Source: Escherichia phage vB_Eco_Mak. From it: a stretch of 40,137 nucleotides of DNA. Shown in pieces: positions 207 through 39,859 of this stretch. Under the pieces are notes generated by a model, which saw only the letters and a program-made list of their open reading frames with translations, did no database searches and had not been told where the DNA came from. The DNA lies in sequence record OX001577; one strand, written 5' to 3'. A program made the position numbers and the translations under genes. How positions within the stretch are numbered: the first letter of the stretch is position 1; each line of letters begins with the position of its first letter.

Positions 207-2891
207 ATGATTAACTTTGATAACATTCAGCGTAATGACTTCTCTGATGTGAAGAACGCCATTATGCCATTCAACGTACTGGCTGATGCTTACGGTGAAT
301 ATCTGGCAGGTGAACAACTGCGCTTAGAGCATGAGTCCTACCAGATGGGCGAGGAACGTTTCATCAAGGCGTTCGAGTCTGCCTGTAAGCGCGGTGAACT
401 CGGTGATTCTCTGGTGGCTCGCCCGTTACTGGAAACCTTGGTTCCTGCACTGAGTGAAGCAACTAAAGCATTCTTAGCTCAAGGTGGTCGTGGTCGTCCG
501 CATGTGTCTAAGCAATACCTGAGCCGTATTGACACCGACCTTGCTGCCTTTATCACCATCAAAGTTGTGCTGATGTCCTTGGGTTCTCCTGCGACAGGCA
601 AAGTAAACAACCACGGTGCTGTAACTGGTGCTAACATGCAGTCAGTCTGTATGTCTATCTCCAAGGCTATCGAGGAGGAGTGCCGCTTCGGTCGCATTCG
701 TGAAGAAGAAGCACAGCATTTCAAGAATCGCGTTAAACCATCGCTGGATAAGCGCCAAGGTCTGCTGTACAAGCGTGAGTACATGAAGGCTGTTGAAGCT
801 GGCATGATTGCTAAAGGCGAGTTGGATAGTCACTTTGAGGAGTGGCCGCGCGATGAAGCATACCATGTTGGTGTCAAGATGTTGGAGCTGCTGATTGAAT
901 CAACTGGTCTGTGCGAGATTGTACGCAAGAACGCTGGTAATCCTAAGTTAGACCGCTACGAAGTGGAACTGACCGAAGAATACGCTGACAAGCTGACCTC
1001 TCGTGTGTCTGCCTTGGCTGGTATCTCACCTGTTAAGCAACCTTGTGTAGTACCACCTAAGCCTTGGACTGGTATCATCGGCGGTGGCTATTGGGCAAAA
1101 GGTCGCAAGCCTTTGCGTCTGATTCGTACCGGAACTAAACGCGCTCTGATGCGCTACAACGATGTGGATATGCCAGATGTGTACAAAGCTATCAACATCA
1201 TTCAGAACACCGCTTGGAAGGTCAATGCGGACGTGCTGAAGGTAGCTAACGAGATTGTCTACTGGAAGCATTGCCCTGTTGAAGACATCCCACAACTGGA
1301 CAAGCTGGATAAACCTGTACGTCCTGAAGGTATTGATGAAGATGAAGCCCTGCTGAAGAAGTGGAAGAAGAACGCTGCGACCATCTACCGCAAGGAGAAA
1401 GCCCGTCAGTCTCGCCGCTTGTCTCTTGACTTCATGATGGCACAAGCTAACAAGTTCGCTCAGTACGATGCCATTTGGTTCCCGTACACAATGGACTGGC
1501 GCGGTCGTGTATATGCTGAGCCAATGTTTAACCCACAAGGTAACGACCTGACCAAAGGTCTGTTAACTTTCGCTAACGGCTGTGAGCTGGGTTCTGAAGG
1601 TGCTTACTGGCTGGCGGTGCATGGCTCCAACTGTGCGGGTGTCGATAAAGTATCACTGGACGACCGCGTTAAGTGGGTGTACGAGAACGAAGAAAACATC
1701 TTGGCATCCGCTGAGAACCCATTAGACTGCACTTGGTGGGCGGAACAAGACTCCCCATTCTGCTTCTTAGCATTCTGCTTCGAGTGGGCAGGGTACGTTA
1801 AGTCTGGCCGTAGTGAAGGCTATGTGTCTCACCTGCCACTGGCATTCGATGGTACTTGCTCCGGTCTGCAACACTTCTCTGCAATGCTGCGTGATGAAGT
1901 TGGTGGTGCTGCTGTTAACCTGCTGCCTGCTGACAAACCACAAGACATCTACGGTATTGTTGCCCAGAAAGTAAACGTCCTGTTGGAGCGTGACCTGTTG
2001 AACGGCACCGAGGACAGCACCAAGATTGTTGTCGATAAGAAGACAGGTGAACAGATTGAGAAGTTTGTTCTGGGTACACGTAACGCTGCTAAACAATGGC
2101 TGCAACACGGTGTAAACCGTAGCGTAACCAAGCGTTCTGTGATGACTCTGGCATACGGTTCCAAGAAGTACGGCTTTGCCGAGCAAATCATGGAGGATAC
2201 TTTACGTCCTGCCATTGATAAAGGCGAAGGTAATCAGTTCACTGCACCTAACCAAGCTGCAATGTATCTGGCTGGTCTTATCTGGGACTGTGTATCAACT
2301 ACCGTAATCGCTGCGGTACAAGCTATGGAATGGTTGCAGAAGTCCGCTGCTCTGATTAGTTCAGAAGTGCGAGACAAGAAGACCAAGGAGCTGTTAAAGC
2401 CTGCTCTGCCTATTCACTGGACTACTCCTAACGGGTTCCCTGTTTGGTCAGAGTACATGATTCAGGAGGAGAAGCGCATTGAAGCGACTCTGTTTGGTGA
2501 ACTGCGTATCCGCAACACTATCAAGCTGCGTGATACCGCCAAGATTGACGCTCAAGCTCAGGCTTCTGGTATTGCACCTAACTTCATCCATAGCAACGAT
2601 GCGTCTCACCTGCAAATGACCGCTGTGTACTGCCACGATGTGTACGGGATTGTTGACTTTGCATTCATCCACGACTCATTCGGTTGTCACGCTGGTAAAG
2701 CTCACCTGCTGTTCAAAGGTGTGCGTGAGACAATGGTTAAGACTTACAGTGAACACGATGTAATCGCTGAGTTCTATGAGCAATTCGCTGAGCAACTGCA
2801 CGAGTCCCAACTGGACAAGATGCCAGCTCTTCCTGAGAAGGGTAACTTAGACCTGAACGAAATCCTGAAGTCACTGTACACTTTCAGTTAA
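207..2891 (+). CDS. T7-like single-subunit DNA-directed RNA polymerase
   Basis: ORF 192..2891 aligns along its full length with remembered T7 gp1 (e.g. PCVVPPKPWTGI, AIWFPY..MDWRGRVYA, WWAEQDSPFCFLAFCFE, LAFDGTCSGLQHFSAM, RSVTKRSVMTLAYGS, HESQLDKMPALP). The T7 alignment begins at MINFDN, so the second ATG (207) with GGAG 9 nt upstream is the likely start; 192 is the alternative. Confidence 0.95.
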   Translation: MINFDNIQRNDFSDVKNAIMPFNVLADAYGEYLAGEQLRLEHESYQMGEERFIKAFESACKRGELGDSLVARPLLETLVPALSEATKAFLAQGGRGRPHVSKQYLSRIDTDLAAFITIKVVLMSLGSPATGKVNNHGAVTGANMQSVCMSISKAIEEECRFGRIREEEAQHFKNRVKPSLDKRQGLLYKREYMKAVEAGMIAKGELDSHFEEWPRDEAYHVGVKMLELLIESTGLCEIVRKNAGNPKLDRYEVELTEEYADKLTSRVSALAGISPVKQPCVVPPKPWTGIIGGGYWAKGRKPLRLIRTGTKRALMRYNDVDMPDVYKAINIIQNTAWKVNADVLKVANEIVYWKHCPVEDIPQLDKLDKPVRPEGIDEDEALLKKWKKNAATIYRKEKARQSRRLSLDFMMAQANKFAQYDAIWFPYTMDWRGRVYAEPMFNPQGNDLTKGLLTFANGCELGSEGAYWLAVHGSNCAGVDKVSLDDRVKWVYENEENILASAENPLDCTWWAEQDSPFCFLAFCFEWAGYVKSGRSEGYVSHLPLAFDGTCSGLQHFSAMLRDEVGGAAVNLLPADKPQDIYGIVAQKVNVLLERDLLNGTEDSTKIVVDKKTGEQIEKFVLGTRNAAKQWLQHGVNRSVTKRSVMTLAYGSKKYGFAEQIMEDTLRPAIDKGEGNQFTAPNQAAMYLAGLIWDCVSTTVIAAVQAMEWLQKSAALISSEVRDKKTKELLKPALPIHWTTPNGFPVWSEYMIQEEKRIEATLFGELRIRNTIKLRDTAKIDAQAQASGIAPNFIHSNDASHLQMTAVYCHDVYGIVDFAFIHDSFGCHAGKAHLLFKGVRETMVKTYSEHDVIAEFYEQFAEQLHESQLDKMPALPEKGNLDLNEILKSLYTFS

Positions 2892-2913
2892 TAACACCCA
2901 CTATGGGACAGAC
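2888..2913 (+). promoter_or_regulatory. phage RNAP promoter-like element (variant)
   Basis: TAATAACACCCACTATGGGACA immediately after the RNAP stop; differs from the consensus near the start site (ATGGGA instead of ATTGGA). Followed by hairpin 2905..2928. Confidence 0.45.
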
Positions 2914-3453: not shown

Positions 3454-3509
3454 CAATAACTTAGGGTAGTCTGTAATGGGCTACCCTTTTGTCGTTTGTT
3501 AATGCCACT

Positions 3510-3533
3510 AATTAACACCCACTATTGGAATAT
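3510..3533 (+). promoter_or_regulatory. phage RNAP promoter (consensus copy)
   Basis: AATTAACACCCACTATTGGAAT; consensus core. Confidence 0.6.
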
Positions 3534-3612: not shown

Positions 3613-3635
3613 ATTTAACACCCACTATTGGAAAC
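3613..3635 (+). promoter_or_regulatory. phage RNAP promoter
   Basis: ATTTAACACCCACTATTGGAAAC, about 30 nt upstream of the methyltransferase ATG. Confidence 0.6.
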
Positions 3636-3664: not shown

Positions 3665-4390
3665 ATGTTAGGTGGAGCACCATTTCAGATTGTACAACCT
3701 AAAGAGCCAGTGAAGTTCGGTGGATTAGGTCACGCTAATGTAGGCATAAAGTCATTACCTAAAGACCGTGGTGTATCATGGTCTGACTTCTATAAGGGTC
3801 GCTTAGGTCAGTCCTATGTTAGTCATGTGTACAAGAACTATAAGGTACATATTGAAGCTATTCGCAGATACATCATTCAGCTATCGCTCAGTAAGAACAG
3901 CTCAATCAAACCACTACGTGTAGTCGAAGCTGGTTGTGGTATCGGGTCTATCACACTGAACCTTGCTGATATGTCAGACCATAAGACAGTTATCTGCTCA
4001 GGCTTTGATGTGTCAGAAGGACAAGTTGTTAACTCTCGTGAGAACGCATTGCTTAACAATGTGGGTGACAGAGTGTCCTTTCATAAAGGTGACATCTTTA
4101 ATAGTGACGTATATAAAGATGCCCACATCATTCACTCTCATGGTGTCTTAGAACACTTCAGTGACGATGACATTATGAAAATCCTATTGACACAACTCAG
4201 TTCTCCTAACGTTCGGTATGTCATTCACTATGTACCACTGGAAGGATGGAAGACTCCCTCTTATGGTGATGAACGCCTGTTACCGCTGACACATTGGGTC
4301 AATGAGTTCGCTCCTACCCGTACCGTTGCGTTCAACGATGGTAAAGACGCTGTGCTAATCTGGGACGTTGAGTCTTTACTTCGCAATTAA
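3665..4390 (+). CDS. class I SAM-dependent methyltransferase (substrate unknown)
   Basis: 241-aa ORF with RBS AAGAGG 7 nt upstream. Contains a Rossmann-fold motif I (VVEAGCGIGSITLNL), an acidic residue after beta2 (GFDVSEG), and FHKGDIF / HSHGVLEHF motifs typical of small-molecule or RNA methyltransferases. Lies in an apparently AT-richer block preceded by two promoter copies. Confidence 0.75.
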   Translation: MLGGAPFQIVQPKEPVKFGGLGHANVGIKSLPKDRGVSWSDFYKGRLGQSYVSHVYKNYKVHIEAIRRYIIQLSLSKNSSIKPLRVVEAGCGIGSITLNLADMSDHKTVICSGFDVSEGQVVNSRENALLNNVGDRVSFHKGDIFNSDVYKDAHIIHSHGVLEHFSDDDIMKILLTQLSSPNVRYVIHYVPLEGWKTPSYGDERLLPLTHWVNEFAPTRTVAFNDGKDAVLIWDVESLLRN

Positions 4391-4408
4391 CACCCACTAT
4401 TGGAGAAC
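4385..4408 (+). promoter_or_regulatory. phage RNAP promoter
   Basis: AATTAACACCCACTATTGGAGAAC overlapping the methyltransferase stop, upstream of ligase. Confidence 0.7.
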
Positions 4409-5526: not shown

Positions 5527-5550
5527 AATTATCACCCACTATTGGAGAAC
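5527..5550 (+). promoter_or_regulatory. phage RNAP promoter-like element (variant)
   Basis: AATTATCACCCACTATTGGAGAAC (one mismatch). Confidence 0.5.
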
Positions 5551-5553
5551 ATC

Positions 5554-5670
5554 ATGGTTTATTTCCTATTGTTCACTGCTTGGTGCATCCTGTGGGTCTG
5601 CTCACGAGACGAACACCGTTGCAAATACTGTGGCGCTCCTTACTCTGAGTGCTTCTGTAAACATTCCTAA
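5554..5670 (+). CDS. possible 38-aa Cys-rich micro-protein
   Basis: Read by hand: ATG 5554 to TAA 5668..5670, MVYFLLFTAWCILWVCSRDEHRCKYCGAPYSECFCKHS. It sits behind the same promoter-leader arrangement (CTATTGGAGAACATC-ATG) as the kinase gene downstream. Below the track's size cutoff. Confidence 0.3.
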   Translation: MVYFLLFTAWCILWVCSRDEHRCKYCGAPYSECFCKHS

Positions 5671-5692
5671 TTAACCACCACTATTGGAGAAC
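5669..5692 (+). promoter_or_regulatory. phage RNAP promoter-like element (variant)
   Basis: AATTAACCACCACTATTGGAGAAC, 7 nt before the dNMP kinase ATG. Confidence 0.5.
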
Positions 5693-6439: not shown

Positions 6440-6603
6440 AGCGATTCGTTATCCATCTTGAACGTGAAGGTTCCAATGAGGAAGAACGCACTGTTATCTT
6501 GGCGCGTGACCTAGACCATGCACTAGACAAAGCTCACTCTTTGTACGGTGAGGACGTGGTAACTCGTGTCCGTCCTGAATTAACACCCACTATTGGAAAC
6601 TAA
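6436..6603 (+). CDS. possible small protein (55 aa, GTG start)
   Basis: GTG 6436 overlaps the kinase stop (GTGA) and has a strong RBS (AGGAGG 6 nt upstream). Reads VKRFVIHLEREGSNEEERTVILARDLDHALDKAHSLYGEDVVTRVRPELTPTIGN. Its last codons are encoded by promoter copy 6578..6600. Not in the ORF track (under 60 aa). Confidence 0.4.
   Translation: MKRFVIHLEREGSNEEERTVILARDLDHALDKAHSLYGEDVVTRVRPELTPTIGN
6578..6600 (+). promoter_or_regulatory. phage RNAP promoter
   Basis: AATTAACACCCACTATTGGAAAC, followed by RNase III hairpin 6611..6656. Confidence 0.7.
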
Positions 6604-9258: not shown

Positions 9259-9282
9259 TAATTAACCCTGACTATTGGAAAC
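9259..9282 (+). promoter_or_regulatory. phage RNAP promoter-like element (divergent)
   Basis: TAATTAACCCTGACTATTGGAAAC; several mismatches to the consensus. Confidence 0.35.
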
Positions 9283-9302
9283 TAACATAAGGAGAATACA
9301 CT

Positions 9303-9578
9303 ATGTCTATCGTTGCTAAAGTTCTGCCCGCTGTTCTGCGCTTTGTTATTCGTGCTTCTGTTAAAGCTCTGACCTCTGAGGTTAACGGCTCTGAAGCCAA
9401 GCGTAAGGCAATCCAAAAGAAACACGATGCGAAAGAAGCAAAGCTGCACACTAAGATTGAGGAGCTGCGCAAGCAACGTGAAGCTATCCGGTCTGCTCGT
9501 ACCGAAGAAGTGTTTGCCAATACACGTAAGACACAGCAAGCACAAGACATGCTGGACAAACTGAGCAAGCTCGCCTAA
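9303..9578 (+). CDS. hypothetical Lys-rich helical protein
   Basis: 91-aa ORF with RBS AAGGAG. Preceded by a divergent promoter-like copy and followed by an RNase III-type hairpin. Confidence 0.6.
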   Translation: MSIVAKVLPAVLRFVIRASVKALTSEVNGSEAKRKAIQKKHDAKEAKLHTKIEELRKQREAIRSARTEEVFANTRKTQQAQDMLDKLSKLA

Positions 9579-9584
9579 CAGTGT

Positions 9585-9627
9585 AAGACTAAAGGTCATT
9601 CTTCGGAGTGGCCTTTGTGAGTTACAT
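9585..9627 (+). promoter_or_regulatory. RNase III-type processing hairpin
   Basis: AAGACTAAAGGTCATTCTTCGGAGTGGCCTTTGTGAGTTAC; same conserved core, before the SSB gene. Confidence 0.5.
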
Positions 9628-9663
9628 TGTAAACAACCTGTAAATAAATAAGGAGGACTCCTA

Positions 9664-10389
9664 ATGTCAACTAAGCCACAAAAGAAAATGTACACAACTC
9701 CGGTCGGTGTCGTAGGTGCATATCCTTACCTGCAACGTCCTGACAAGGGTAACGAGAAGTTCCCTAAGCCTCGCGGTGAGTGGAGCTGTAAGCTGCTGAT
9801 TCCTAGTGCTCAAGCACAAAAGGTAGTAGACCTGATTGTGAAGGCTTCCGAGGCCAACTATCAGAACTACCTTGAGAACATTCATCCTAAGCGTCTGGCC
9901 GAAGCGAAAGCAAAAGGTAAGCGTCCGCCTAAGCAACTGGATGAAGCACAGTACCCATTCTATGAAGACGACCAAGGTAACGTAGTATTCACCTTCAAGA
10001 GTCACGCTTCATACCAAGACAAGTCTGGTGAGACTAAAGAGATTACTCTGCGTGTCTACGACTGCCAAGGTAAGCGCATTCAGGTAGTACCTAACATCTG
10101 CAATGGTTCTGAGGGTCGTGTTGAGTTCTCACTCGTGCCTTACGTCTCCGAAGTCGCTAACGTTGGTATCAAGCTGCAACTTGAGAAGTTCCAACTGTTG
10201 AAGCTGAAGGAATGGACAGGCAATGACACCTTCGGTGGTGGCGCTGTGGAAGGCTATGAAGATGGCTTCAAGGCTGATGAATTTAGTGGTGAAGGCACAG
10301 GCTTTGAAGACCACGACTACAGCGATGATGAACCTGCTGGTGGTACTGCTCAGGACTACCACGAAGACACTACCTACGGTGACTTCTAA
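9664..10389 (+). CDS. single-stranded DNA-binding protein (T7 gp2.5-like)
   Basis: Similar to remembered T7 gp2.5 (PYLQRPD.GNE, FSLVPY, KLQLE, FGGG) and has the characteristic acidic C-terminal tail ending in DF. RBS AAGGAGG. Confidence 0.9.
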   Translation: MSTKPQKKMYTTPVGVVGAYPYLQRPDKGNEKFPKPRGEWSCKLLIPSAQAQKVVDLIVKASEANYQNYLENIHPKRLAEAKAKGKRPPKQLDEAQYPFYEDDQGNVVFTFKSHASYQDKSGETKEITLRVYDCQGKRIQVVPNICNGSEGRVEFSLVPYVSEVANVGIKLQLEKFQLLKLKEWTGNDTFGGGAVEGYEDGFKADEFSGEGTGFEDHDYSDDEPAGGTAQDYHEDTTYGDF

Positions 10390-11290: not shown

Positions 11291-11338
11291 GTTACATACT
11301 CAAGGTCATCCGTAATGGGTGGCCTTTATGAATGTAAT
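11291..11338 (+). promoter_or_regulatory. RNase III-type processing hairpin
   Basis: GTTACATACTCAAGGTCATCCGTAATGGGTGGCCTTTATGAATGTAAT after the amidase gene. Confidence 0.55.
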
Positions 11339-11358
11339 TAACACCCACTATTGGTATT
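11336..11358 (+). promoter_or_regulatory. phage RNAP promoter
   Basis: AATTAACACCCACTATTGGTATT; start-site region differs (GGTA). Confidence 0.55.
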
Positions 11359-11378: not shown

Positions 11379-11879
11379 ATGTCAACATCTATGTCATTCG
11401 ACCGTGCTGTACACATTGCCTGCAAAACTCTGATGTCTGCGGGTAGCTTCACTCAAGACGAACGCGCTGCTGCGTATGACACCTTGGTAAGCGTCAATGT
11501 CCAGTTCAAACAGATGTTCGAGAACATGTTCCCACAAATTGCTAAGGCAGAGCCAAAGGTTAACGACACTCTGTCTAAGTTTGAGGAAATCCTGAACGAA
11601 CCAGAGTTGGAGATGGTTAGCAACATTGTTGAACTACGTGGTGCAACAAAGGCTATGAACGACAATGGGTTCTTTGATGGTATGAAGTTTGAGGTGGTAA
11701 CATCTCGTGGTACTCCTTACTCAAACAACAAGTACCGTGTATCCCTGTGTCGTCACCTGCGTACTGGTAAGCTGGCATGGTTAACCTCAGACAAACTTGA
11801 GTCAATCGAAATGACTAAGGAGAAGTACGACTCTCTGGTTGAGAAGCGTATGGCTAAATCTTACAAGTACGACTTTTAA
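11379..11879 (+). CDS. hypothetical protein
   Basis: 166-aa ORF with RBS AAGGAG, directly after promoter copy 11336..11358. No family recognised. Confidence 0.6.
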   Translation: MSTSMSFDRAVHIACKTLMSAGSFTQDERAAAYDTLVSVNVQFKQMFENMFPQIAKAEPKVNDTLSKFEEILNEPELEMVSNIVELRGATKAMNDNGFFDGMKFEVVTSRGTPYSNNKYRVSLCRHLRTGKLAWLTSDKLESIEMTKEKYDSLVEKRMAKSYKYDF

Positions 11880-13981: not shown

Positions 13982-14317
13982 ATGGCTGCGCGTAAAACGC
14001 CTGTTGTTCGACCTCTCCGCTTCCATACTCACCCTAATGGGTGTATCACCTGCGTATCTCATAAAGCCAACCATGATGGATACTTTCGTTACAAGGTTGG
14101 TTCATCCCGTAATGGGACTGCCAAGATGTTCATGTTCCACCGATTCGTCTGGGAGCATAAGCATGGTGAGATACCAGAAGGCTACACTATTAACCACAAA
14201 TGTAAGAATCGAGGTTGCCAAAATGTAGACCATATGGAATTACTGAGTGTCACTGAACACGCTGCGGAGACTAATCGAAACAGATACAGGAAGATTAAAC
14301 ACCCACTATTGGAGTAA
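13982..14317 (+). CDS. HNH endonuclease
   Basis: 111-aa ORF with RBS AAGGAGG. HNH-type motif INHKCKNRGCQNVDHMELLSVTEHA with a Cys-rich zinc-binding element. Its 3' end encodes promoter copy 14293..14317. Confidence 0.8.
   Translation: MAARKTPVVRPLRFHTHPNGCITCVSHKANHDGYFRYKVGSSRNGTAKMFMFHRFVWEHKHGEIPEGYTINHKCKNRGCQNVDHMELLSVTEHAAETNRNRYRKIKHPLLE
14293..14317 (+). promoter_or_regulatory. phage RNAP promoter embedded in the 3' end of the HNH gene
   Basis: GATTAAACACCCACTATTGGAGTAA; encodes the last residues (..KHPLLE) and stop of the HNH ORF. Confidence 0.6.
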
Positions 14318-14368
14318 GGGAGCCAAAGTTCCCTAACTAAATGTCTATTAACATAAGGAGAATACACT

Positions 14369-16162: not shown

Positions 16163-16207
16163 TTATATCATCAAGGTCATTCTTAGGAGTGGCCTTCATT
16201 GGTATAA
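16163..16207 (+). promoter_or_regulatory. RNase III-type processing hairpin
   Basis: TTATATCATCAAGGTCATTCTTAGGAGTGGCCTTCATTGGTATAA. Confidence 0.55.
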
Positions 16208-16228
16208 TTAACACCCACTATTGGAGGT
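16206..16228 (+). promoter_or_regulatory. phage RNAP promoter
   Basis: AATTAACACCCACTATTGGAGGT directly after RNase III hairpin 16163..16207. Confidence 0.7.
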
Positions 16229-17442: not shown

Positions 17443-19047
17443 ATGGCTGAAGTTAAACGTGAAGGTCTAGCTGCTGAAGGTGCAGCCAAGACATATGAGC
17501 GTTTGAAGAATGACCGTAACGACTACGTGACCCGTGCAGAGGACTGTGCCAAGTACACCATTCCTAGTCTGTTCCCTAAGGATTCAGACGATGGTGGTAC
17601 GAGTTATACGACTCCTTGGCAGTCCATTGGTGCTCGCGGTCTGAACAACATTAGCGCAAAGGTAAACCTAGCGTTGTTCCCTGTAGGTGCGCCTTTCTTC
17701 AAACTGAATATCTCTGAGCTAGAGCTGAAGCAAATCATCACCGATTCGTCTGCACTTCAAGATGTAGCACAAGGTCTGTCGATGGTTGAGCGTATTGTTC
17801 TTAGCTACATGGAGGCCAACGGTTATCGAACTTCTCTGGTTGAAGCTATTCGTCAACTCTTTGTTAGCGGTAACGTGCTGCTGTACGTGACCAATCCTGA
17901 CGAGATGATGGATGGTGAAATGGCTGGTCTGAAGGTCTACCGATTGCCGTCCTATGTAGTTGAACGAGATGGATTCGATAACGTCTTGCAGATTGTAGCA
18001 GTCGATAAGATTGCCCGCGTAGCGTTACCTGAAGACATCCAATCTGCTATCGCTGAGGAGACTACCGATGAAAACCTGACAGAAGAAGTCGAGATTTACA
18101 CTCACATCTACCGTAACTCTGAGACACAAATGTTCACAGTTTATCAGGAGATTGAGGGTGAAATCGTAGCTGGCTCTGAAGGTGAGTACCCATTGGATGC
18201 TTGCCCTTGGATTCCTGTACGTCTTATCAAGATGCCTAACGAGGACTATGGACGTTCGTTCGTAGAAGAATACCTCGGTGACTTGAAGTCATTGGAGGCT
18301 CTGTACGAGGCTATGATTAAGATGTCCATGATTGCCGCTAAGGTTCTGTTCATGGTTAACCCTAACGGACAGACTCAGGTTCGCCGTATGGCTAAGGCCA
18401 ACACAGGTGACTTTGTAGCTGGTCGTAAGGAAGACATCGGAGTATTCCAGTTAGAGAAACAACAGGACTTCAACACAGCGAAGATTGTAGCTGACACCAT
18501 TGAGGCTCGCTTGTCGTATGCCTTCATGTTGAACTCTGCGGTACAACGCGGTGGTGACCGTGTTACTGCTGAGGAGATTCGCTATGTGGCTGGTGAATTG
18601 GAGGACACTCTGGGTGGTATCTATTCGTTACTGTCCCAAGAGTTACAGATGCCTTTAGTCCGCATCCTGTTGCGTGTACTGGAAGCTACCTCGAAGATTC
18701 CTAACTTGCCTAAGGAAGCTGTTGAACCTGCTGTTGCTACTGGTCTGGAAGCTCTGGGTCGTGGTCATGACCTTGACAAGCTGAATATGTTCGTTAACGG
18801 TATTGCTACTCTGTCTGCAATCCAAGACGAAGACCTGAACATGCGTGACATTAAGATGCGCTACGCTAACTCTCTGGGTATGGACACTGCTGGTATGATT
18901 CTGACTCCTGAGGAGAAACAACAGAAGATGGCTGAAATGGCTCAACAACAGGCCATGATGCAAGGTGGTGCCGCTGCGGGTGGCGTAATGGGTCAAGCTG
19001 GTGGTCAAGCAATGGCTGAACAAGCTGCTCAGATGATGCAACAATAA
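17443..19047 (+). CDS. portal / head-tail connector protein (T7 gp8-like)
   Basis: 534 aa, the size and position of T7 gp8, with a Gln/Ala/Met-rich C-terminal tail (MAEMAQQQAMMQGG...QMMQQ). Sits immediately before the scaffold and capsid genes. Confidence 0.9.
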   Translation: MAEVKREGLAAEGAAKTYERLKNDRNDYVTRAEDCAKYTIPSLFPKDSDDGGTSYTTPWQSIGARGLNNISAKVNLALFPVGAPFFKLNISELELKQIITDSSALQDVAQGLSMVERIVLSYMEANGYRTSLVEAIRQLFVSGNVLLYVTNPDEMMDGEMAGLKVYRLPSYVVERDGFDNVLQIVAVDKIARVALPEDIQSAIAEETTDENLTEEVEIYTHIYRNSETQMFTVYQEIEGEIVAGSEGEYPLDACPWIPVRLIKMPNEDYGRSFVEEYLGDLKSLEALYEAMIKMSMIAAKVLFMVNPNGQTQVRRMAKANTGDFVAGRKEDIGVFQLEKQQDFNTAKIVADTIEARLSYAFMLNSAVQRGGDRVTAEEIRYVAGELEDTLGGIYSLLSQELQMPLVRILLRVLEATSKIPNLPKEAVEPAVATGLEALGRGHDLDKLNMFVNGIATLSAIQDEDLNMRDIKMRYANSLGMDTAGMILTPEEKQQKMAEMAQQQAMMQGGAAAGGVMGQAGGQAMAEQAAQMMQQ

Positions 19048-19070
19048 TTAACACCCACTATTGGAGAGAT
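19046..19070 (+). promoter_or_regulatory. phage RNAP late promoter (before scaffold gene)
   Basis: AATTAACACCCACTATTGGAGAGAT overlapping the portal stop; followed by transcript 5' hairpin GGAGAGA...TCTCTCC (19063..19087). Confidence 0.75.
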
Positions 19071-19114
19071 GAACAATTTGTCTCTCCTTAGTGATTAACT
19101 TAATGGAGGAAACA

Positions 19115-20014: not shown

Positions 20015-20023
20015 TTGAACTGA

Positions 20024-20047
20024 ATTAACACCCACTATTGGAGAGGA
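20024..20047 (+). promoter_or_regulatory. phage RNAP late promoter (before major capsid gene)
   Basis: AATTAACACCCACTATTGGAGAGG, about 100 nt upstream of the capsid ATG; position analogous to the T7 gene 10 promoter. Confidence 0.75.
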
Positions 20048-21327: not shown

Positions 21328-21349
21328 TTCCATTAACATCTGACATAAA

Positions 21350-21380
21350 GGGGAGGCCATTAGGTCTTCCCTTTTTTTTT
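21350..21380 (+). terminator. rho-independent terminator after the major capsid gene (T7 T-phi analogue)
   Basis: GGGGAGGCC-ATTA-GGTCTTCCC (9-bp stem with two G-U pairs) followed by nine T residues, 23 nt after the capsid stop. Confidence 0.75.
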
Positions 21381-21398
21381 CGCTAAGGAGGCTACTTT

Positions 21399-22009: not shown

Positions 22010-24400
22010 ATGGGACTTGTCTCACAATCAATCAAGAACCTGAAGGGTGGTATCAGTCAACAACCTGACATCCTTCGGTTTGCAGACCAAGGGGAGAAGC
22101 AAGTCAATGCGTTCTCCTCAGAGGTTGAGGGTCTACAGAAACGACCTCCAAGCACTCACGTCAACCGATTGGCAGACCACGGTGCTCTCAGTGAGAAACC
22201 TTATTGTCACGTAATCAACCGTGATGAACAAGAGAAGTACGTTCTGTTCTTCGGGAACAACACTGTGTACGCATACAATCTATTGACAGGTTTGTATGTT
22301 CCAGTGAACTTCCCTAGTGGTGCTTCTTACATTGCCACTGCGAACCCGCGTAAAGACTTACGAATGGTTACCGTAGCGGACTTCACCTTTATCATCAACC
22401 GTAATGTGGTAGTACAGGAAGGTTCCACTCGGACACCGATGCACTACCAACAAGGTAAACATGGTCTTGTATATTGCCGTGGTGGCCAATATGCTCGTAC
22501 CTATCAGATTATTCTGAATGGTGCAGTGCAGGCTACCTATACGGCTCCACTAGGTGACCAAGTAGCCCATGCCAAAGAGATTGACACTCAGTTTATCTTG
22601 ACTAAGCTGGCAGAGAACTTCAACGCTAACCTAAGCCAACACGGATGGTCAGCGTCAGTTCAGGATGGTTACCTGTGGATTCAAGCAGGTGGAAACACTA
22701 TCACTTCCCTGAAGGTAGTGGACGGCTTCAACGGGCAACTGTTGGATTGTATAACTTATTCAGCACAGAAGACCGTAGACCTTCCGGTTACAGCTCCCGA
22801 TAAATACCAAGTGTTAATCTCAGGAGATGCAGCTCAAGGTCAGGATGACTTCTGGGTTCAGTATGATGGTCAACGCCGTGTATGGACTGAAATCCCTGCA
22901 CCTAACATCATTGCTGACCTGAACAAGAATACCATGCCTTGGGTGATGATTCGTGAGGCAGACGGTAACTTTACCCTACGTCCTACCGATTGGTCTACCC
23001 GTGGTAGTGGTGACGATGACACTAACCCGATGCCTTCCTTTGTGGGTCAGACAATCAACGATGTGTTCTTCTTCCGTAACCGTTTAGGTTTTCTGAGCGG
23101 TGAGAACGTTGTGATGTCTGAGGCAGGGTCATACTTCAACTTCTTCCCTCGGTCTGTTGCTGTGACTTCTGATAGTGACCCTATTGACGTTGCTGTATCA
23201 ACTAACCGGATTAGTATCTTGAAGTACGCTGTGCCATTCTCTGAGGAACTGCTATTATGGTCTGACCAAAGCCAGTTCGTAATGACTGCCGATGGTATTC
23301 TGACTCCTACGTCTGTCCGCTTGGATATGACCACTGAGTTCGAGGTGACCGATAGTGCTCGCCCTTACGGTATTGGCCGTGGTGTTTACTTCATTGCACC
23401 TCGCGCTAAGTTCTCCTCAGTGCGGCGTTACTATGCTGTGCAGGACGTTACTCAGGTGAAGAACGCTGAGGACGTTACAGCTCACGTACCGAGTTACATC
23501 CCTAATGGTGTACACAAAGTCACCGGTAGTTCCATTGAGAACTTGCTTACCGTGTTGACCGAGGGTGCTCCACATAAGGTGTTCCTTTACAAGTTCCTGT
23601 ACTTGGAAGAACAGATTGCCCAGCAGTCTTGGTCTGAGTGGGACTTTGGGGAAGGTTCTCGTGTACTGTGCTGTGACATGATGGGAGCTATTATGCACCT
23701 CGTGATTGATGCCCCTTCTGGTATCTACATGGAACGCATTGAGTTCACTCAGAACACTAAGGACTATCCTAACGAACCGTACCGTTTGTATATGGACAGA
23801 AAGATTCGTTACACCATCCCTAGTGGCGCATACAACGATGACAACTTTGAGACTACTATCTACTTGCAGAACGTGTATGGTGCTAAGCCTCAGTACGGTA
23901 AGTATTTCGTAGTGTTAGAATCTGGTGTCGTGTATGAGTTCGACCCGCCTGATGGTGGTTGGGCTGCGTCAGATGGTGGTCTTCGCATCAACGGAAACCT
24001 TGAAGGTTACAACGTGTTCATCGGTGAGCAGTACACCATGCTGTATCAGTTCTCCAAGTTCCTTATTAAGTCTGTTGATACTAATGGTGGTACAACTACT
24101 GAGGACATCGGTCGCTTACAATTGCGCCGCGCTTGGGTTAACTACGACAAGTCAGGCGACTTCCGTATCCAAGTTGAGAATCAAGGTCGAGTGTTCACGT
24201 ACAACATGACAGGTCGCCGCTTAGGGACTAAACAACTGGTACTTGGTGAGCAGAACCTAGATACAGGACAATTTAAGTACCCTGTGTCAGGTAACGCCAA
24301 GGTGGTTAACATTACGTTGCTATCCGATGCCCCAAGCCCTGTTGCTATCATTGGTGGTGGATGGGAAGGTAACTACATCAGACGTTCATCTGGTATTTAA
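22010..24400 (+). CDS. tail tubular protein B (T7 gp12-like)
   Basis: 796-aa ORF (T7 gp12 is 794 aa) in the conserved position. RBS AAGGAGG. Confidence 0.9.
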   Translation: MGLVSQSIKNLKGGISQQPDILRFADQGEKQVNAFSSEVEGLQKRPPSTHVNRLADHGALSEKPYCHVINRDEQEKYVLFFGNNTVYAYNLLTGLYVPVNFPSGASYIATANPRKDLRMVTVADFTFIINRNVVVQEGSTRTPMHYQQGKHGLVYCRGGQYARTYQIILNGAVQATYTAPLGDQVAHAKEIDTQFILTKLAENFNANLSQHGWSASVQDGYLWIQAGGNTITSLKVVDGFNGQLLDCITYSAQKTVDLPVTAPDKYQVLISGDAAQGQDDFWVQYDGQRRVWTEIPAPNIIADLNKNTMPWVMIREADGNFTLRPTDWSTRGSGDDDTNPMPSFVGQTINDVFFFRNRLGFLSGENVVMSEAGSYFNFFPRSVAVTSDSDPIDVAVSTNRISILKYAVPFSEELLLWSDQSQFVMTADGILTPTSVRLDMTTEFEVTDSARPYGIGRGVYFIAPRAKFSSVRRYYAVQDVTQVKNAEDVTAHVPSYIPNGVHKVTGSSIENLLTVLTEGAPHKVFLYKFLYLEEQIAQQSWSEWDFGEGSRVLCCDMMGAIMHLVIDAPSGIYMERIEFTQNTKDYPNEPYRLYMDRKIRYTIPSGAYNDDNFETTIYLQNVYGAKPQYGKYFVVLESGVVYEFDPPDGGWAASDGGLRINGNLEGYNVFIGEQYTMLYQFSKFLIKSVDTNGGTTTEDIGRLQLRRAWVNYDKSGDFRIQVENQGRVFTYNMTGRRLGTKQLVLGEQNLDTGQFKYPVSGNAKVVNITLLSDAPSPVAIIGGGWEGNYIRRSSGI

Positions 24401-24418
24401 CACCCACTATTGGAGACA
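24395..24418 (+). promoter_or_regulatory. phage RNAP promoter (before deoxynucleoside kinase)
   Basis: ATTTAACACCCACTATTGGAGACA overlapping the tail tubular B stop. Confidence 0.7.
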
Positions 24419-24433: not shown

Positions 24434-24464
24434 GAGGGTCACTATATTTAGTGGCTCTCTTTTA
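24434..24464 (+). terminator. stable hairpin with U-tract between the promoter and the kinase gene (terminator or attenuator candidate)
   Basis: GAGGGTCACT-ATATTT-AGTGGCTCTC (10-bp stem with G-U pairs) followed by TTTTA. Confidence 0.35.
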
Positions 24465-31200: not shown

Positions 31201-32601
31201 CTGACCCGATTGATTACTGGCCGCCGTAGAGCTGAAGACCCTGCGTCTGCCTTGGTGACTGCAATTCGTGGTCTGCAAGATTGGTCGTTCCTGTCTAACT
31301 CTGCGCAGATGTGGGTGAACAACCTAACTGAAGTATCAGGGTGGGCAACTAACCGGATGATGTTTGTGGCTCGTAATGGTGTCAAAGGTCTGAACCAACT
31401 GTTGAACCCAGAAACGAAGTTCTCTAAGGCTGACCTGAAGGACTTTGCTGATGGTCTGTTCGGCTATGACCTGAACACTTCGTTGTTACCTTCCTACCGG
31501 AACATCAAAGACCAACTGATTAAGACAGGTGCTAGCGAACGTGCTGCTTCAATCGCTGCTGGTATTCGTACAAGTGGTGCATTGGCTGCAAGTCATAAGT
31601 ACAACATCTACACTAAGCTGTTGAACAAGACTACTGAAGGTCTGGTCAATATGGCACGTAGTGGTGTACTGAGTGACATCACACACGAAGCATTCGGTGG
31701 TGTGCGTATCAATAAGGCTATCTTGAGGAATGCCTCAATCACTGAGAAACAGTATGCAGGTGTCTTGGATATGTTACGTCAGCACATCAAAGTGCAAGAC
31801 GGTAAGTATGTCCCTGATGTGCAGGCCATTAAGCGTGACGTTAGGTCTAATGACCTGTGGCGCTTAGCGGACTACATTGCGTCTGACTCTGTGATGCGAA
31901 CAAACAAGGTGGGCTTCAACTATGTGGCTAAACCTAATGCCTTTATGAACCTTGCGTTGCAGTTCAAGTCCTTCATGTTGAAGGGTCTGAATGCTCGCAC
32001 TGTTCGTATGTGGCATGAGTCATTCCAAGGTAAGTCTATTGACAACGCTATGCGAGTTATCGTTGGTGCTGGTATCACTGGTGCTATCTGGGCTGCACAG
32101 GCTCACTACCGTTCTATTGGTATTCCACCTGAGCAACGCCAAGAGTACCTTGAGCGTATGTTAGACCCTAGCATGGTAGCTTATCAGGCATTCTCACGTA
32201 GTGCTGAGATGGGTACTGTACTTGGTGGTGTAAACCTCGCGTTGACTCCATTCACAGACAGTGACCTGTTCCGTTTAGGTCGTTCTACCGTAGACCCTGT
32301 ACGGGCTATGAAAGGACGCTCACCTTTACGTGCAGACGTTCTGAATCAACAAGCTGTCGGTGAACAACTTGGTGACGCTGTGTACAACACAATGCCAGCC
32401 TTGAAGTTCATTGGTACTGCTGGTGTCCTTCCGGCTAACGCTGTGCAATGGGCACTTGCCGACCACGGCTATCAGTCTGACATGCAGGCTCGTACCTTCT
32501 TTGAGAACTTAGCGTCTGCTGCTCCTAATGCTCCTGAGATTCAGTGGTTAATCGGGATGATGGCACAAGATGCAGGTGCTTCAGGTAAGGGTATGTGGTA
32601 A
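28276..32601 (+). CDS. internal virion protein D with N-terminal lytic transglycosylase domain (T7 gp16-like)
   Basis: 1441 aa. N-terminal SLT-like motifs (GMIESGLKADASSGVAKGLFQFTKTTWDA, AYL) parallel the remembered T7 gp16 N-terminus (AWTESRF...GPLGMMQFTKAT). Internal matches include DLVRSPTG, GIENN.F...RN.FD, DLR.FDM, NGDIAIH.STGKTTK.LKD, QFKSF..K.LN, EYLERMLDP.M.A. Confidence 0.9.
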   Translation: MSYSTDTSSTSMYQRLKALSGDTHGLITTAGNELGLPEGQALKVGMIESGLKADASSGVAKGLFQFTKTTWDAMKQKYGAEYGIDPTASRTDPVANTILGVAYLKENATNYQSTFGKDPELVDLYMGHFLGQSGRNQFLKAMEQNPNAPAYAVVGKRSVANNKDVFFKKDGTARTLNEVYQMYSNKLSATELEQDMKTDRLKMDIQDELLWKTLGRSQDGSANATLSTGTAPSTPNFDVSLSDSKPQSIADALSSYGLQKPEDTVEKDERSFFDGAWEAAKAEIRLSPIGRDLREKYIQSGAPVEWDSAAAALRESFSGLSQSEMFTGNINPLEPMDITPEMWNTILSNGVDKKWMEYIKMSANPQDLVNRVQMAQEMQRADQARQAAATGGQLVGGIAGAFGDPLTFATGGTSAGGSLMTRLFVAGTEAAAGNAANEFSLSQETRGGVETNIAAAALGGFAGGVALRGLGEAFTNMSAAGRMRARQESIDAGVPDVTARPDVEVPEGKTWVEKPDEAGAVVDELGNTHSATSFGNPKVMEAVEANKGIELGGLNSISYDLLRSESTETRTIAQDLVRSPTGIKGGGSGVTRMTAEDYLGRLEGQDNLIYTQAMKAREKAYEHSMFDLQGGRNAREAMERQVVEAIESGDFSRLTPEMKEYADLLTTNFTEKHYAASNIAALSGNADAPNVLTSTIDPKRYVPAIYEEGKVIDAKMRFDPEGKYEGLYNEIQANWTAQWKNNHNGVRERMKALFDEDNSKFAEDLRAKLTKDKELDVVPEGKQKSARMEKQEGIQAKISKAEELRQKNAVKLQKARKPETRAKYEGLVQKYDKQLSELKTELEMTKPMDEDKLLEIYAQRYIERKSYGIAKNGEFTHSSSLEDVDLSDSLVGIENNNFTQERNIFDMAYESIAKDGEPFSLNDLRHFDMMNAMSMYNKRMNGDIAIHASTGKTTKDLKDAIVALPEGRDRTNLDQLTRLITGRRRAEDPASALVTAIRGLQDWSFLSNSAQMWVNNLTEVSGWATNRMMFVARNGVKGLNQLLNPETKFSKADLKDFADGLFGYDLNTSLLPSYRNIKDQLIKTGASERAASIAAGIRTSGALAASHKYNIYTKLLNKTTEGLVNMARSGVLSDITHEAFGGVRINKAILRNASITEKQYAGVLDMLRQHIKVQDGKYVPDVQAIKRDVRSNDLWRLADYIASDSVMRTNKVGFNYVAKPNAFMNLALQFKSFMLKGLNARTVRMWHESFQGKSIDNAMRVIVGAGITGAIWAAQAHYRSIGIPPEQRQEYLERMLDPSMVAYQAFSRSAEMGTVLGGVNLALTPFTDSDLFRLGRSTVDPVRAMKGRSPLRADVLNQQAVGEQLGDAVYNTMPALKFIGTAGVLPANAVQWALADHGYQSDMQARTFFENLASAAPNAPEIQWLIGMMAQDAGASGKGMW

Positions 32602-32624
32602 TTAACACCCACTATTGGAGAGGG
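32600..32624 (+). promoter_or_regulatory. phage RNAP late promoter (before tail fiber)
   Basis: AATTAACACCCACTATTGGAGAGGG overlapping the gp16 stop; followed by hairpin AGGGAGGC-TAAAT-GTCTCCCT (32621..32641). Confidence 0.75.
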
Positions 32625-32677
32625 AGGCTAAATGTCTCCCTACTTAATGTCTATAACAATTAGTGTAAGGAGGATAA

Positions 32678-36565: not shown

Positions 36566-36705
36566 ACCGTATCGTAACTTGGGTTCTGTTGGTCTGTGTG
36601 TGGACTGCTGTTCTGCTGAGTCTCAGTGGTTGCACCATTATGATTGACAGTCCAAACTCACAACCAATGGTTGAATGTGGTGACTTGTTAGGTATCACCC
36701 TGTAA
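36562..36705 (+). CDS. small lipoprotein, candidate outer-membrane spanin component
   Basis: Read by hand: ATG 36562 (GGAGG upstream) to TAA 36703..36705, 47 aa. Signal peptide with lipobox LSGC (MNRIVTWVLLVCVWTAVLLSLSGC...). Sits in the T7 18.5/18.7 position. Confidence 0.45.
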   Translation: MNRIVTWVLLVCVWTAVLLSLSGCTIMIDSPNSQPMVECGDLLGITL

Positions 36706-36753
36706 GTTATATACTCAAGGTCATTCGCGTAGAGTGGCCTTTATGAATATAAC
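36706..36753 (+). promoter_or_regulatory. RNase III-type processing hairpin
   Basis: GTTATATACTCAAGGTCATTCGCGTAGAGTGGCCTTTATGAATATAAC with perfect outer stem GTTATAT/ATATAAC. Confidence 0.6.
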
Positions 36754-36775
36754 TAGCAACTAAGGAGGTTAAATT

Positions 36776-37021
36776 ATGACCGAAAGTGATAACGCTACGC
36801 AAAATCTGAGTAGAAGTCCTTATGGATTATGGTCAGAAATTGAAGGATTGCGTAGTCTGGCAGACACTTTGATAGGTGGAGAGATGCCTATGGAGGTGTA
36901 CAACGCTCTGACTCCTGAGCAAAAGAAGATTACCCTTAACGTAACCAAGGCGTGTTCACAATGTGCTACTGCCTTAGAGAAGTTTCAAGAGGAGGTACTA
37001 AATGTCGGCTGCCCAAAGTAA
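36776..37021 (+). CDS. hypothetical protein
   Basis: 81-aa ORF with RBS AAGGAGG, right after an RNase III-type hairpin; overlaps the terminase large subunit start. No transmembrane segment. Confidence 0.5.
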
Positions 37022-38774: not shown

Positions 38775-38830
38775 TATGTTAACAAAGATGGTTAAATGTT
38801 AACGAATTGAGTAGATTTTTGACCATTTTG

Positions 38831-38853
38831 AATTAACACCCACTATTGGAGTA
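38831..38853 (+). promoter_or_regulatory. phage RNAP promoter near the right genome end
   Basis: AATTAACACCCACTATTGGAGTA, 57 nt after the terminase stop. Confidence 0.6.
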
Positions 38854-38948
38854 TACGACAATAAGAGGGAACATTAAGTCTATAGACACTAGGAGAGTCG
38901 ACCTTAGAGTAGGCACTCAGTCTGACCTTAGTGTTCCCTCTTTGTCTT

Positions 38949-38990
38949 GGGAGTATTCTTCATTATTAGAATAACTCCCTTCTCTTTGTG
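38949..38990 (+). terminator. candidate terminator hairpin downstream of terminase
   Basis: GGGAGTATTCT-TCATTATT-AGAATAACTCCC followed by a T-rich run (TTCTCTTT). Confidence 0.4.
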
Positions 38991-39119
38991 TAGAGACACT
39001 GAGGCGTATCTTGGAGGTGATTGTATGAGGAAGACTACCCTTATGGTCACCTACTATGTGGTTAAAGTTACCTTCTTGGTTTACCTGTTGGTAACCCATG
39101 CTGGCGCTTAATCTCGGTA

Positions 39120-39600: not shown

Positions 39601-39623
39601 AATTAACACCCACTATTGAAGAA
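39601..39623 (+). promoter_or_regulatory. phage RNAP promoter-like element near the left genome end (variant)
   Basis: AATTAACACCCACTATTGAAGAA (GAAGA instead of GGAGA at the start site), just upstream of the A1-like host promoter. Confidence 0.45.
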
Positions 39624-39653: not shown

Positions 39654-39682
39654 TTGACATTAGAACTTAGTGTCTATAGTAT
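39654..39682 (+). promoter_or_regulatory. host sigma70-type early promoter (T7 A1-like)
   Basis: TTGACA (39654..39659), 17-nt spacer, TAGTAT (39677..39682); flanks (GAGTATTGAC upstream, GGCGTCCATCGAAGGGAAACACGG downstream) resemble remembered T7 A1. Confidence 0.65.
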
Positions 39683-39782
39683 GGCGTCCATCGAAGGGAA
39701 ACACGGAAACGGTGCGACTCTGAGATTACAGCGTCAAGCGGTACAAGTAGACAGCCTGCTAAGTCATACGAACAACAGGTAC

Positions 39783-39811
39783 TTGACAACAGAAACAAGA
39801 AACACTAAGAT
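39783..39811 (+). promoter_or_regulatory. host sigma70-type early promoter (T7 A2-like)
   Basis: TTGACA (39783..39788), 17-nt spacer, TAAGAT (39806..39811); upstream GTAGACAGCCTG.TAAGTC matches the remembered T7 A2 context. Confidence 0.6.
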
Positions 39812-39859
39812 ACACCACAACGAAACAACAACAGAAACACCAACAAATAGGAGTTGACA

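Follow-up and report, generated by a model that had tools for sequence, protein, structure and literature searches.

Seventeen promoter-like repeats in Escherichia phage vB_Eco_Mak and the T7-type RNA polymerase that very probably reads them

Just past the scaffold gene of Escherichia phage vB_Eco_Mak (OX001577) lies a short sequence that recurs elsewhere in the genome, always on the same strand. Is it a promoter, and if so, which polymerase reads it, and how far is the specificity of that polymerase its own? We addressed these questions in the whole available stretch of 40,137 nucleotides, referred to here as the window. Comparison with sequenced relatives leads us to conclude that the 17 sites found very probably serve as promoters for the T7-type single-subunit RNA polymerase that the phage itself encodes (207-2891). 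Taken as such, they form a T7-type set of the ordinary kind, whose specificity variant recurs in a few other phages.

A repeat family and its place on the genome map

The genome follows a T7-like order, with all real genes on the + strand: RNA polymerase, ligase, primase/helicase, SSB, endonuclease, DNA polymerase, exonuclease, portal, scaffold, capsid, tail, core, fibre and terminase. Escherichia phage vB_Eco_Bam (OW991346.2; Autographiviridae, Studiervirinae) is 99.9% identical to the window, its record being rotated, and vB_Eco_Titus is a sister phage almost the same in sequence. The Bam GenBank record has annotations for two terminators but for no promoter, and the one paper found to name that phage says nothing of promoters. 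Bases 1-127 of the window are the same as 40011-40137, an assembly overlap, and no site falls inside the duplicate. A search of the Vibrio phage VP4 and Aeromonas phage T7-Ah records for terminal repeats, made in order to place genome ends, returned no exact repeat.

Searching the window for the pattern AATTAACACCCACTATTGGAGA with up to three mismatches gives 15 copies, all on the + strand, where 100 dinucleotide-preserving shuffles lead one to expect 0. A matrix built from these 15 copies, as the original prediction had suggested, and scored at every position on both strands adds just two weaker + strand sites, at 9260 (24.7 bits) and 2889 (16.2 bits), bringing the total to 17; over the whole window no site on the - strand exceeds 8 bits. 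The earlier estimate of about 17 copies on this strand is thus borne out, as 15 close and two divergent copies in a strand ratio of 17:0. All 17 of the sites then listed exist, four of them with their register moved by one base (20024 to 20023, 14293 to 14294, 2888 to 2889 and 9259 to 9260). The motif comprises 22 bases, with conservation spanning -17..+5 (∼34 bits), and 14 copies match the 12-base core CACCCACTATTG without a single mismatch. Of the 17 sites, 15 contain CACTATT; 9260 has GACTATT in its place and 2889 has CACTATG. Each site lies 0-160 bp past the end of a substantial gene or overlaps its last codons, and each has a + strand gene downstream, so that the intergenic or gene-end location claimed for nearly all copies holds for the full set (Table 1).

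Table 1. Coordinates in the window of the polymerase gene, the promoter copies and associated elements
Feature	Coordinates	Strand	Remarks
T7-type single-subunit RNA polymerase gene, 894 aa	207..2891	+	start ATG 207; GGAGA at 194-198 upstream
Specificity loop, residues 750-781 (T7 739-770)	2454..2549	+	translation YMIQEEKRIEATLFGELRIRNTIKLRDTAKID; from alignments
Loop codon R757 (T7 R746)	2475-2477
Loop codon E759 (T7 N748)	2481-2483
Loop codon R767 (T7 R756)	2505-2507
Loop codon R769 (T7 Q758)	2511-2513
Divergent promoter copy TAATAACACCCACTATGGGACA	2889..2910	+	overlaps RNAP stop codon; 16.2 bits own matrix, 12.1 bits T7+T3 matrix
Hairpin then T-rich tail (TE-like)	3463..3497	+	past first gene downstream of RNAP gene
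Promoter copy, GGAAT start	3510..3531	+	directly past TE-like hairpin
Promoter copy	3613..3634	+	35 nt upstream of ORF 3665-4390
Promoter copy, exact consensus	4385..4406	+	ATG at +15; upstream of ligase region, like T7 phi1.3
Promoter copy, AATTATC	5527..5548	+	GGAGA at +1..+5 doubles as ribosome-binding site; ATG at +11
Promoter copy, ACCAC at -12..-8	5669..5690	+	ATG at +14
Promoter copy, GGAAA start	6578..6599	+	found by pattern and own matrix
Heterotypic promoter copy AATTAACCCTGACTATTGGAAA	9260..9281	+	upstream of ORF 9303-9578 and SSB gene; T7 phi2.5 position
Promoter copy, GGTAT start	11336..11357	+	upstream of ORF 11379-11879 and DNA polymerase gene
Promoter copy, AT-rich part shifted (ATTAAAC)	14294..14315	+	followed by 5' hairpin
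Promoter copy, GGAGG start	16206..16227	+	after exonuclease gene; T7 phi6.5 position; ATG at +11
Promoter copy, exact consensus then G	19046..19067	+	portal gene end, upstream of scaffold gene; T7 phi9 position; hairpin from +1
Promoter copy first flagged, exact consensus then G	20023..20044	+	9 bp past scaffold gene, 109 nt upstream of major capsid gene; T7 phi10 position
Strong hairpin then T run	21347..21384	+	directly past major capsid gene; annotated terminator in GenBank record
Promoter copy	24395..24416	+	tail tubular B gene end; T7 phi13 position; hairpin 24434-24459 downstream
Promoter copy, exact consensus then G	32600..32621	+	end of gp16-like gene, upstream of tail fibre gene; T7 phi17 position
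Promoter copy	38831..38852	+	57 bp past large terminase gene; T7 phiOR position
Promoter copy, GAAGA start	39601..39622	+	just upstream of three host-type early promoters; T7 phiOL position
Sigma-70-type promoter	39654-39682	+	perfect TTGACA, 17-nt spacer
Sigma-70-type promoter	39783-39811	+	perfect TTGACA, 17-nt spacer
Sigma-70-type promoter	39854-39882	+	perfect TTGACA, 17-nt spacer

Compared with the T7 and T3 annotation, the order of the sites parallels the T7 map from phiOL, 1.1A through 17, to phiOR, and the gene boundaries shared with that map are those after genes 1, 8, 9, 12, 16 and 19 and those before 2.5, 6.5, 10 and 17. Sites 2889, 3510 and 3613 together correspond to T7 phi1.1A/B, and 5527 and 5669 to phi1.5 and 1.6. 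The divergent copy at 2889 keeps an intact core over -12..-2 behind a T7-like upstream part (TAATA), with G at -1, and its position matches those of T7 phi1.1A and T3 phi1.05. The late copies at 19046, 20023 and 32600 are uniform through the whole consensus and the G that follows it, whereas early and middle copies vary at +3..+6, a pattern which resembles that of class III versus class II promoters in T7.

Other elements fall into place around these sites. Transcripts predicted from 2889, 14294, 19046 and 32600 would carry stable hairpins from +1..+3 (z-scores -2.7 to -3.6), and since the hairpins begin there, they lend independent support to the +1, which we assign solely by alignment with T7 and by hairpin position. 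At four sites (4385, 5527, 5669 and 16206) GGAG at +1 precedes an ATG at +11..+15, the same arrangement as at T7 phi1.5, 1.6, 4.3 and 4.7. The hairpin past the capsid gene (21347-21374, with its T run to 21384) is likely the late terminator, standing at the T7 Tphi position, and the TE-like hairpin (3463-3487, with its T-rich tail to 3497) is likely an early terminator for the host polymerase; in VP4 an early terminator is annotated directly past the RNA polymerase gene. By analogy with T7 A1-A3, the three putative sigma-70 promoters would drive early transcription of the polymerase gene.

Promoter bases and the polymerase residues that would read them

Annotated promoters of T7 (n=17) and T3 (n=14) were extracted and aligned on CACTA, an alignment in which the motif covers -17..+5 and +1 is the first G of GGAGA. 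With a matrix made from these T7 and T3 promoters only, 16 of the 17 sites are the top 16 of ∼80,000 positions on both strands, and the remaining one, 14294, in which the AT-rich part is shifted by one base, ranks 19th. At a threshold of at least 9 bits this matrix finds 16 matches on the + strand and none on the other; shuffles average 0.77 and reach 4 at most. Taken one at a time, scores of 10-18 bits do not stand out far from the highest random ones (one shuffle gave 20 bits), and the case for promoters therefore rests on the ensemble of sites.

The original prediction had the motif sharing CACTAT with the T7, T3 and SP6 promoters, which is correct for T7 but not for T3, whose promoter reads CACTAA. 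It had also placed the specificity region apart from all three, and here it was right: -12..-8 is ACACC in this phage, compared with CGACT in T7 and ACCCT in T3. CACTA itself is common to more than 50% of the T7-like promoters mined by Zhu et al. 2025, who collected 11,218 of them from 840 phage genomes (PMC11880802). The set under study is a conserved, co-directional element of ∼23 bp in many copies, with the CACTA core at -7..-3 and an A/T-rich -4..-1; it is recognised by the T7/T3 model and placed according to the T7 map, in a genome that encodes a cognate RNA polymerase whose loop residues fit the promoter bases. These are the marks of membership among the T7-like (Studiervirinae) RNA polymerase promoters.

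The polymerase aligns over its full length with T7 RNA polymerase (PDB 1CEZ; phmmer, E = 0, 1156 bits), and is 58% identical to those of T7 and T3, 64% to that of VP4 and 67% to that of T7-Ah. The comparison of specificity-loop residues with T7 RNA polymerase, as had been proposed, gives R/E/R/R where T7 has R746/N748/R756/Q758. The two replacements, N748 to Glu and Q758 to Arg, fit the changed bases at -11 and -8 respectively. In T7, as established by the structure of its complex and by genetics, N748 contacts -11 and -10, R756 contacts -9 and Q758 contacts -8, with R746 as one of four hydrogen-bonding residues of the loop (PMC5937735, PMC11880802). Most specificity is carried by residues 748, 756 and 758 against bases -12..-8, and experimentally tested look-up rules give K or R at 758 for C at -8; the window phage fits these residue-base rules (PMC11880802).

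For a view of covariation between residues and bases, we assembled T7, T3 and VP4 (annotated promoters), Aeromonas phage T7-Ah (at least 16 copies), 80 polymerase loci from IMG/VR and Pseudomonas phage vB_PaeM-G11 (Table 2). The IMG/VR loci were found with an alignment of five polymerases as the query; the same locus search with the phage polymerase alone gave no matches. Motif discovery at these loci used C-terminal segments only. Some automatic consensus strings were mis-anchored, since GACTCACT has two ACT, and strings were kept only if confirmed by rescanning.

Table 2. Specificity-loop residues (T7 numbering) and promoter bases in the lineages compared
Phage or locus	746/748/756/758	-12..-8	-7
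T7	RNRQ	CGACT	C
T3 and gh-1-like	RDRQ	ACCCT	C
VP4, T7-Ah	VDRQ	ACCCT	G
Vibrio N4-like (L094)	RDRA	ACCCA	C
L059	RDHQ	ACCAT	C
L058	QNRR	ACGCC	A
L123	RDRR	ACACC	C
L098, L102, L130, G11	RDRR	ACACC	C
L113, L114	RERR	ACCCC	C
Window phage (Bam)	RERR	ACACC	C

Residue 758 pairs with base -8 as Q/T, A/A and R/C, the last of these pairings occurring in five lineages; residue 756 pairs with -9 as R/C and H/A, and residue 748 with -11 as N/G and as D or E with C. R746 of T7 reads -7 in the 1CEZ structure, and what backs this contact in the present data is covariation alone (R/C, V/G, Q/A). On the sequences compared, such pairings are what a direct-readout model predicts. The identity of residue 748 (D or E) gives no explanation of A versus C at -10, as D and E each occur with both bases among the loci compared.

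Put together, these observations suggest the following course of events. Early in infection, host RNA polymerase would start at the three sigma-70 promoters (39654-39882) and transcribe the polymerase gene, and the phage polymerase would then bind double-stranded promoter DNA from about -17 to -5. Its N-terminal loop would read the AT-rich part (AATTA, -17..-13) and its specificity loop (residues 750-781) would read -12..-7 (ACACC-C) in the major groove. Within that loop, R767 and R757 would recognise the C:G pair at -9 and the pair at -7 respectively, as their counterparts R756 and R746 do in T7; R769, in place of T7 Q758, would fit C:G instead of T:A at -8, and E759, in place of N748, would fit C at -11. 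TATT (-4..-1) would be melted, and the RNA would start at the G 17 nt past the first A of the motif, to give GGAGA. The sequences themselves show the repeat family, its strand bias and placement, its resemblance to T7 and T3 promoters and the covariation of residues with bases; initiation at the sites, the exact +1, the promoter strengths and orthogonality are what we infer here.

Orthogonality, site 9260 and alternative readings

The alternative that survives best accepts the promoter family but holds that the pair is not usefully orthogonal, either because T3-type or other polymerases read the motif or because the phage polymerase reads T3- or VP4-type promoters. We consider this unlikely, though far from negligible, and if it were so the practical point of the finding would fail. 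The motif has the same bases as the T3 promoter at -17..-11, -9 and -7..-3, so that the recognition region differs at -10 and -8 only, but single changes at -9..-7 of the T7 promoter lower activity to <5% (PMC5937735), and in all lineages examined residue 758 changes strictly in step with -8. One VP4-type promoter has been kept at a functional position, 9260, which could mean that the polymerase tolerates it; yet 9260 is the only VP4-type site in the window genome, and scanning the VP4 and T7-Ah genomes returned no site of the Bam type. Neighbouring specificity classes do have promoter variants in common in the published network (PMC11880802). Judged from the bases and residues compared, orthogonality to the standard polymerases is plausible.

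Site 9260 deserves attention of its own. It differs from the consensus of its own family at -10, -8 and -7, three positions that matter critically in T7 (PMC5937735), and it is the only site to carry ACCCT, there with G at -7; the consensus of the family is ACACC, as against the C at -10 and T at -8 of T3 specificity. The other 16 sites carry C at -7, and residues 746 and 758 of the polymerase are both Arg, whereas VP4 and T7-Ah are characterised by ACCCT, G at -7, V746 and Q758. Site 9260 alone has the DNA features of that specificity, matching the VP4/T7-Ah promoter at 16 of 17 positions (-17..-1), and it is identical at 20 of 22 positions to VP4's own SSB promoter. This includes the T at -1, which in VP4 is confined to that one promoter, just as in T7 it is confined to phi2.5. 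We considered recent import of the 9260/SSB module from a VP4-type phage, but the proteins of the SSB region are no closer to those of VP4 and T7-Ah than is the rest of the genome (SSB 54-55%), and recent import is therefore unlikely. The site may be a relic that escaped conversion, or it may have been imported long ago; T3 offers a parallel, an unused T7-type sequence annotated ahead of its gene 17. Because of the loss of activity that changes at -9..-7 cause in T7, 9260 is probably weak for the phage polymerase, and both it and 2889 may be weak or unused.

A further and more tentative idea is that polymerase and promoters have recently switched specificity, from the ACCCT-G of the relatives to ACACC-C, with Arg at 746 and 758, leaving 9260 as an unconverted VP4-type survivor. 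We hold this to be possible, if rather doubtful. If it is true, the clade would be a natural series of coevolution intermediates (ACACC, ACCCT-G, ACCCA, ACGCC-A and ACCAT, with polymerases 61-73% identical), and the phage polymerase (E759/R769) would be a ready-made natural polymerase orthogonal to those of T7, T3, SP6 and K11.

Far less probable is that the repeats are not promoters, and serve instead as binding sites of another protein (a replication, packaging or recombination factor), as a homing-endonuclease target or as a selfish short repeat. Not every short intergenic repeat of a phage is a promoter, and repeat elements can be mispredicted as such (PMC11880802), but nothing points specifically to such a role here, and it has to contend with base-for-base alignment to the T7 and T3 promoters, recovery by a matrix made from those alone, the strict strand bias, positions that match the T7 promoter map, and reading residues in the polymerase that co-vary with the motif across lineages. 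Finally, we reject as barely credible the proposal that the host enzyme uses the sites as sigma-70 promoters, taking TTAACA within AATTAACAC for a -35 box: a consensus scan does give TTAACA-based candidates at 38833, 39603 and 19048, but a -10-like hexamer at the right spacing is present in only 3 of the 17 sites (each 9/12 positions), the conserved part of the motif, CACCCACTATTGG, falls in the would-be spacer, the gene body holds fewer sigma-70-like sites than expected (12 vs 24.9, and 10 vs 23.5), and three much better sigma-70 sites are clustered in the early region.

Significance and comparison with known systems

How distinctive, then, is the specificity of these very probable promoters? 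Among 50,697 cultured phage records, the 22-mer occurs in many copies in Bam and Titus only, and in IMG/VR it does so in one contig only, IMGVR_UViG_3300030238_000004 (41 kb). An exact 15-mer was found in 45 stretches of IMG/VR, all single chance matches except in one contig, a relative in promoter type. Some gh-1-like phages, the cultured G11 among them, likewise combine the recognition core ACACCCACTA (-12..-3) with Arg758. A full-text search for the core CACCCACTAT, in which strings held in figures and supplements are not searchable, returned no phage paper describing it earlier, the matches being primers and 'macrophage'; large-scale mining of T7-like promoters has already been published (PMC11880802). 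By sequence, then, the promoter is unlike those of T7, T3, SP6, K11 and its nearest relatives, yet its specificity class is not unique. The original prediction of a polymerase with its own promoter specificity stands in so far as recognition bases and reading residues differ from those of T7, and falls short in that the specificity is not confined to the window phage.

The value of the result lies partly in annotation. With the terminators and the early sigma-70 promoters, the 17-promoter map orders the genome into early, middle and late units, and the promoter and terminator map corrects several gene starts, in a phage whose Bam record carries no promoters. A natural polymerase for ACACC with Arg758 is a candidate for joining the few phage polymerases that are orthogonal to one another. 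Since other phages already have this core, and T7 variants engineered to take C at -8 have been published (PMC11880802), the gain is incremental. As a heterotypic promoter, 9260 makes, with the diversity of specificities in close relatives, a small, clean example of polymerase-promoter coevolution.

Judged base by base, the motif is closest among known promoters to that of T3 (consensus AATTAACCCTCACTAAAGGGAGA), with which it has AATTAAC upstream and CACTA at the core in common. T3 promoters likewise start with G and stand in ∼14-17 co-directional copies at equivalent gene boundaries, and T3 RNA polymerase also has an acidic residue at T7 position 748 (D; E here) paired with C at -11. The motif differs from T3 in having A rather than C at -10, C rather than T at -8, TT rather than AA at -2/-1 and A rather than G at +3, and the phage polymerase, only 58% identical to that of T3, carries Arg at T7 position 758, where the T3 enzyme has Gln. 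The T7 promoter (TAATACGACTCACTATAGGGAGA) is likewise a 23-bp element with a CACTAT core, and T7 shares with the window phage its promoter map and class II/class III pattern, 5' hairpins, GGAG at +1 as a ribosome-binding site, a Tphi terminator past the capsid gene and host promoters ahead of gene 1. It differs at -12..-8 (CGACT, not ACACC) and -17..-13 (TAATA, not AATTA), and relative to T7 RNA polymerase the phage enzyme has N748E, Q758R and a shorter AT-rich recognition loop.

The promoters of VP4 and T7-Ah (AATTAACCCTGACTATAGGGA) have the same AATTAAC upstream half and ACTAT core, and their polymerases, the closest available (64-67% identity), have the same AT-rich-loop sequence; at -10, -8 and -7 these promoters read C, T and G against A, C and C in the window phage, and at 746 and 758 the polymerases have V and Q against R and R. 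The contig IMGVR_UViG_3300030238_000004 carries ∼22 copies of AATTAACACCCACTATAGGGAG, which agree with the window over all of -17..-2 (AATTAACACCCACTAT) but have A at -1 and a GGGAG start, and its polymerase is 63% identical. The promoters of Pseudomonas phage vB_PaeM-G11 (OQ622254.1, gh-1-like) have TTAAA upstream and CTAAAAGCACA downstream, and its polymerase is 53% identical. Both the contig and G11 have D rather than E at 748, and both have the recognition core, Arg758, R746 and R756 in common with the window phage.

Promoter specificity and the polymerase gene

Comparing the window with four polymerase loci from IMG/VR (L058, L059, L094 and L123), we find polymerases that share 61-73% identity pairwise and promoters that are all of the form AATTAAC...ACTATAGG. 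The set contains at least five recognition cores (written as bases -12 to -8, then -7), namely ACACC-C, the type of this phage, ACCCT-G, ACCCA-C, ACGCC-A and ACCAT-C, and in every case the loop residues of the polymerase fit the core. Our conclusion, drawn from these sequences, is that promoter specificity is diversifying unusually fast in this clade.

The window itself contains one promoter of another type (see table). While its other promoters are of the ACACC-C type, that at 9260 is almost identical to the SSB promoter of VP4, and it could either have survived from before a change of specificity or have been imported long ago. A second anomaly lies immediately upstream of the polymerase gene, where a promoter-like sequence scores 3.5 bits with a T7+T3 matrix and has G, not C, at -9. 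Since Aeromonas phage T7-Ah, Pseudomonas phage vB_PaeM-G11, the IMG/VR contig IMGVR_UViG_3300030238_000004 and the loci L098, L102 and L113 all carry a good phage promoter at the equivalent position, this sequence may be a decayed copy. The polymerase also differs from that of T7 by an insertion in its N-terminal domain, which reads SPATGKVNNHGAVTGAN here and SA-D-NTT in T7.

Features located in the window
Feature	Coordinates	Description
Degenerate promoter-like sequence	173-195	TAATTTCAGCCACTATAAGATGG; immediately upstream of polymerase gene
Polymerase insertion	about 590-640	~11 residues; polymerase residues about 128-145
Lone VP4/Aeromonas-phage-type promoter	9260-9281	AATTAACCCTGACTATTGG; SSB (phi2.5) position
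Unannotated ORF	9303-9578	+ strand; after promoter 9260; good ribosome-binding site (AAGGAGAATACACTATG)
Stable hairpins	2906-2927, 14313-14338, 19063-19087, 24434-24459, 32618-32645	At or near 5' end of predicted transcripts
Three sigma-70-type promoters	39654-39882	Each perfect TTGACA + 17-nt spacer; all inside 230 bp

Transcript starts and gene calls

The hairpins at or near predicted transcript starts have z-scores of -2.7 to -3.6, and in several cases a CTAAnTAA-like stretch comes next. Their possible roles are as 5' stems that stabilise the RNA or as RNase III sites of the kind annotated beside T3 promoters. One of them, at 24434-24459, is called a terminator in the record, yet it is located 22 nt past the +1 of a promoter.

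Predicted starts also bear on the gene calls. For three genes the ORF list gives a TTG start (4368, 5684, 16221) upstream of the predicted +1, and the in-frame ATGs at 4416, 5699 and 16233 are the likelier starts. At 9282-9695, overlapping the unannotated ORF, the record annotates an ORF on the - strand. Its other small - strand CDS, in the 36627-39244 region, are doubtful as well in a genome whose real genes all lie on the + strand.

Genome ends and the early region

The first 127 bases of the window (1-127) are identical to the last (40011-40137). This has the appearance of a circular contig assembled with a k=127 overlap, and the genome without the repeat would then be 40,010 bp, equal in length to that of the near-identical phage Titus. 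A 127-bp repeat of the same kind is present as an internal tandem duplication (18735-18988) in GenBank version 2 of phage vB_Eco_Bam (OW991346.2). There it doubles the phi9-like promoter, and the fragment CDS annotated 'head to tail joining protein' (BAMTRB_030) is a spurious product of the duplication.

Eight of the window's 12 copies of the octamer CCTTATGT (0.9 expected genome-wide) are grouped on the + strand within 39162-39562, between the phiOR-like and phiOL-like promoters. This cluster resembles the short-repeat arrays adjoining the terminal repeat in T7-like genomes, and on that likeness we place the physical genome ends, probably, within this region. Just downstream of the phiOL-like site lie the three sigma-70-type promoters. 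The trio resembles A1-A3 of T7. In the remaining genome similar sites are about two-fold rarer than expected, with 12 found where 24.9 were predicted and 10 where 23.5 were.
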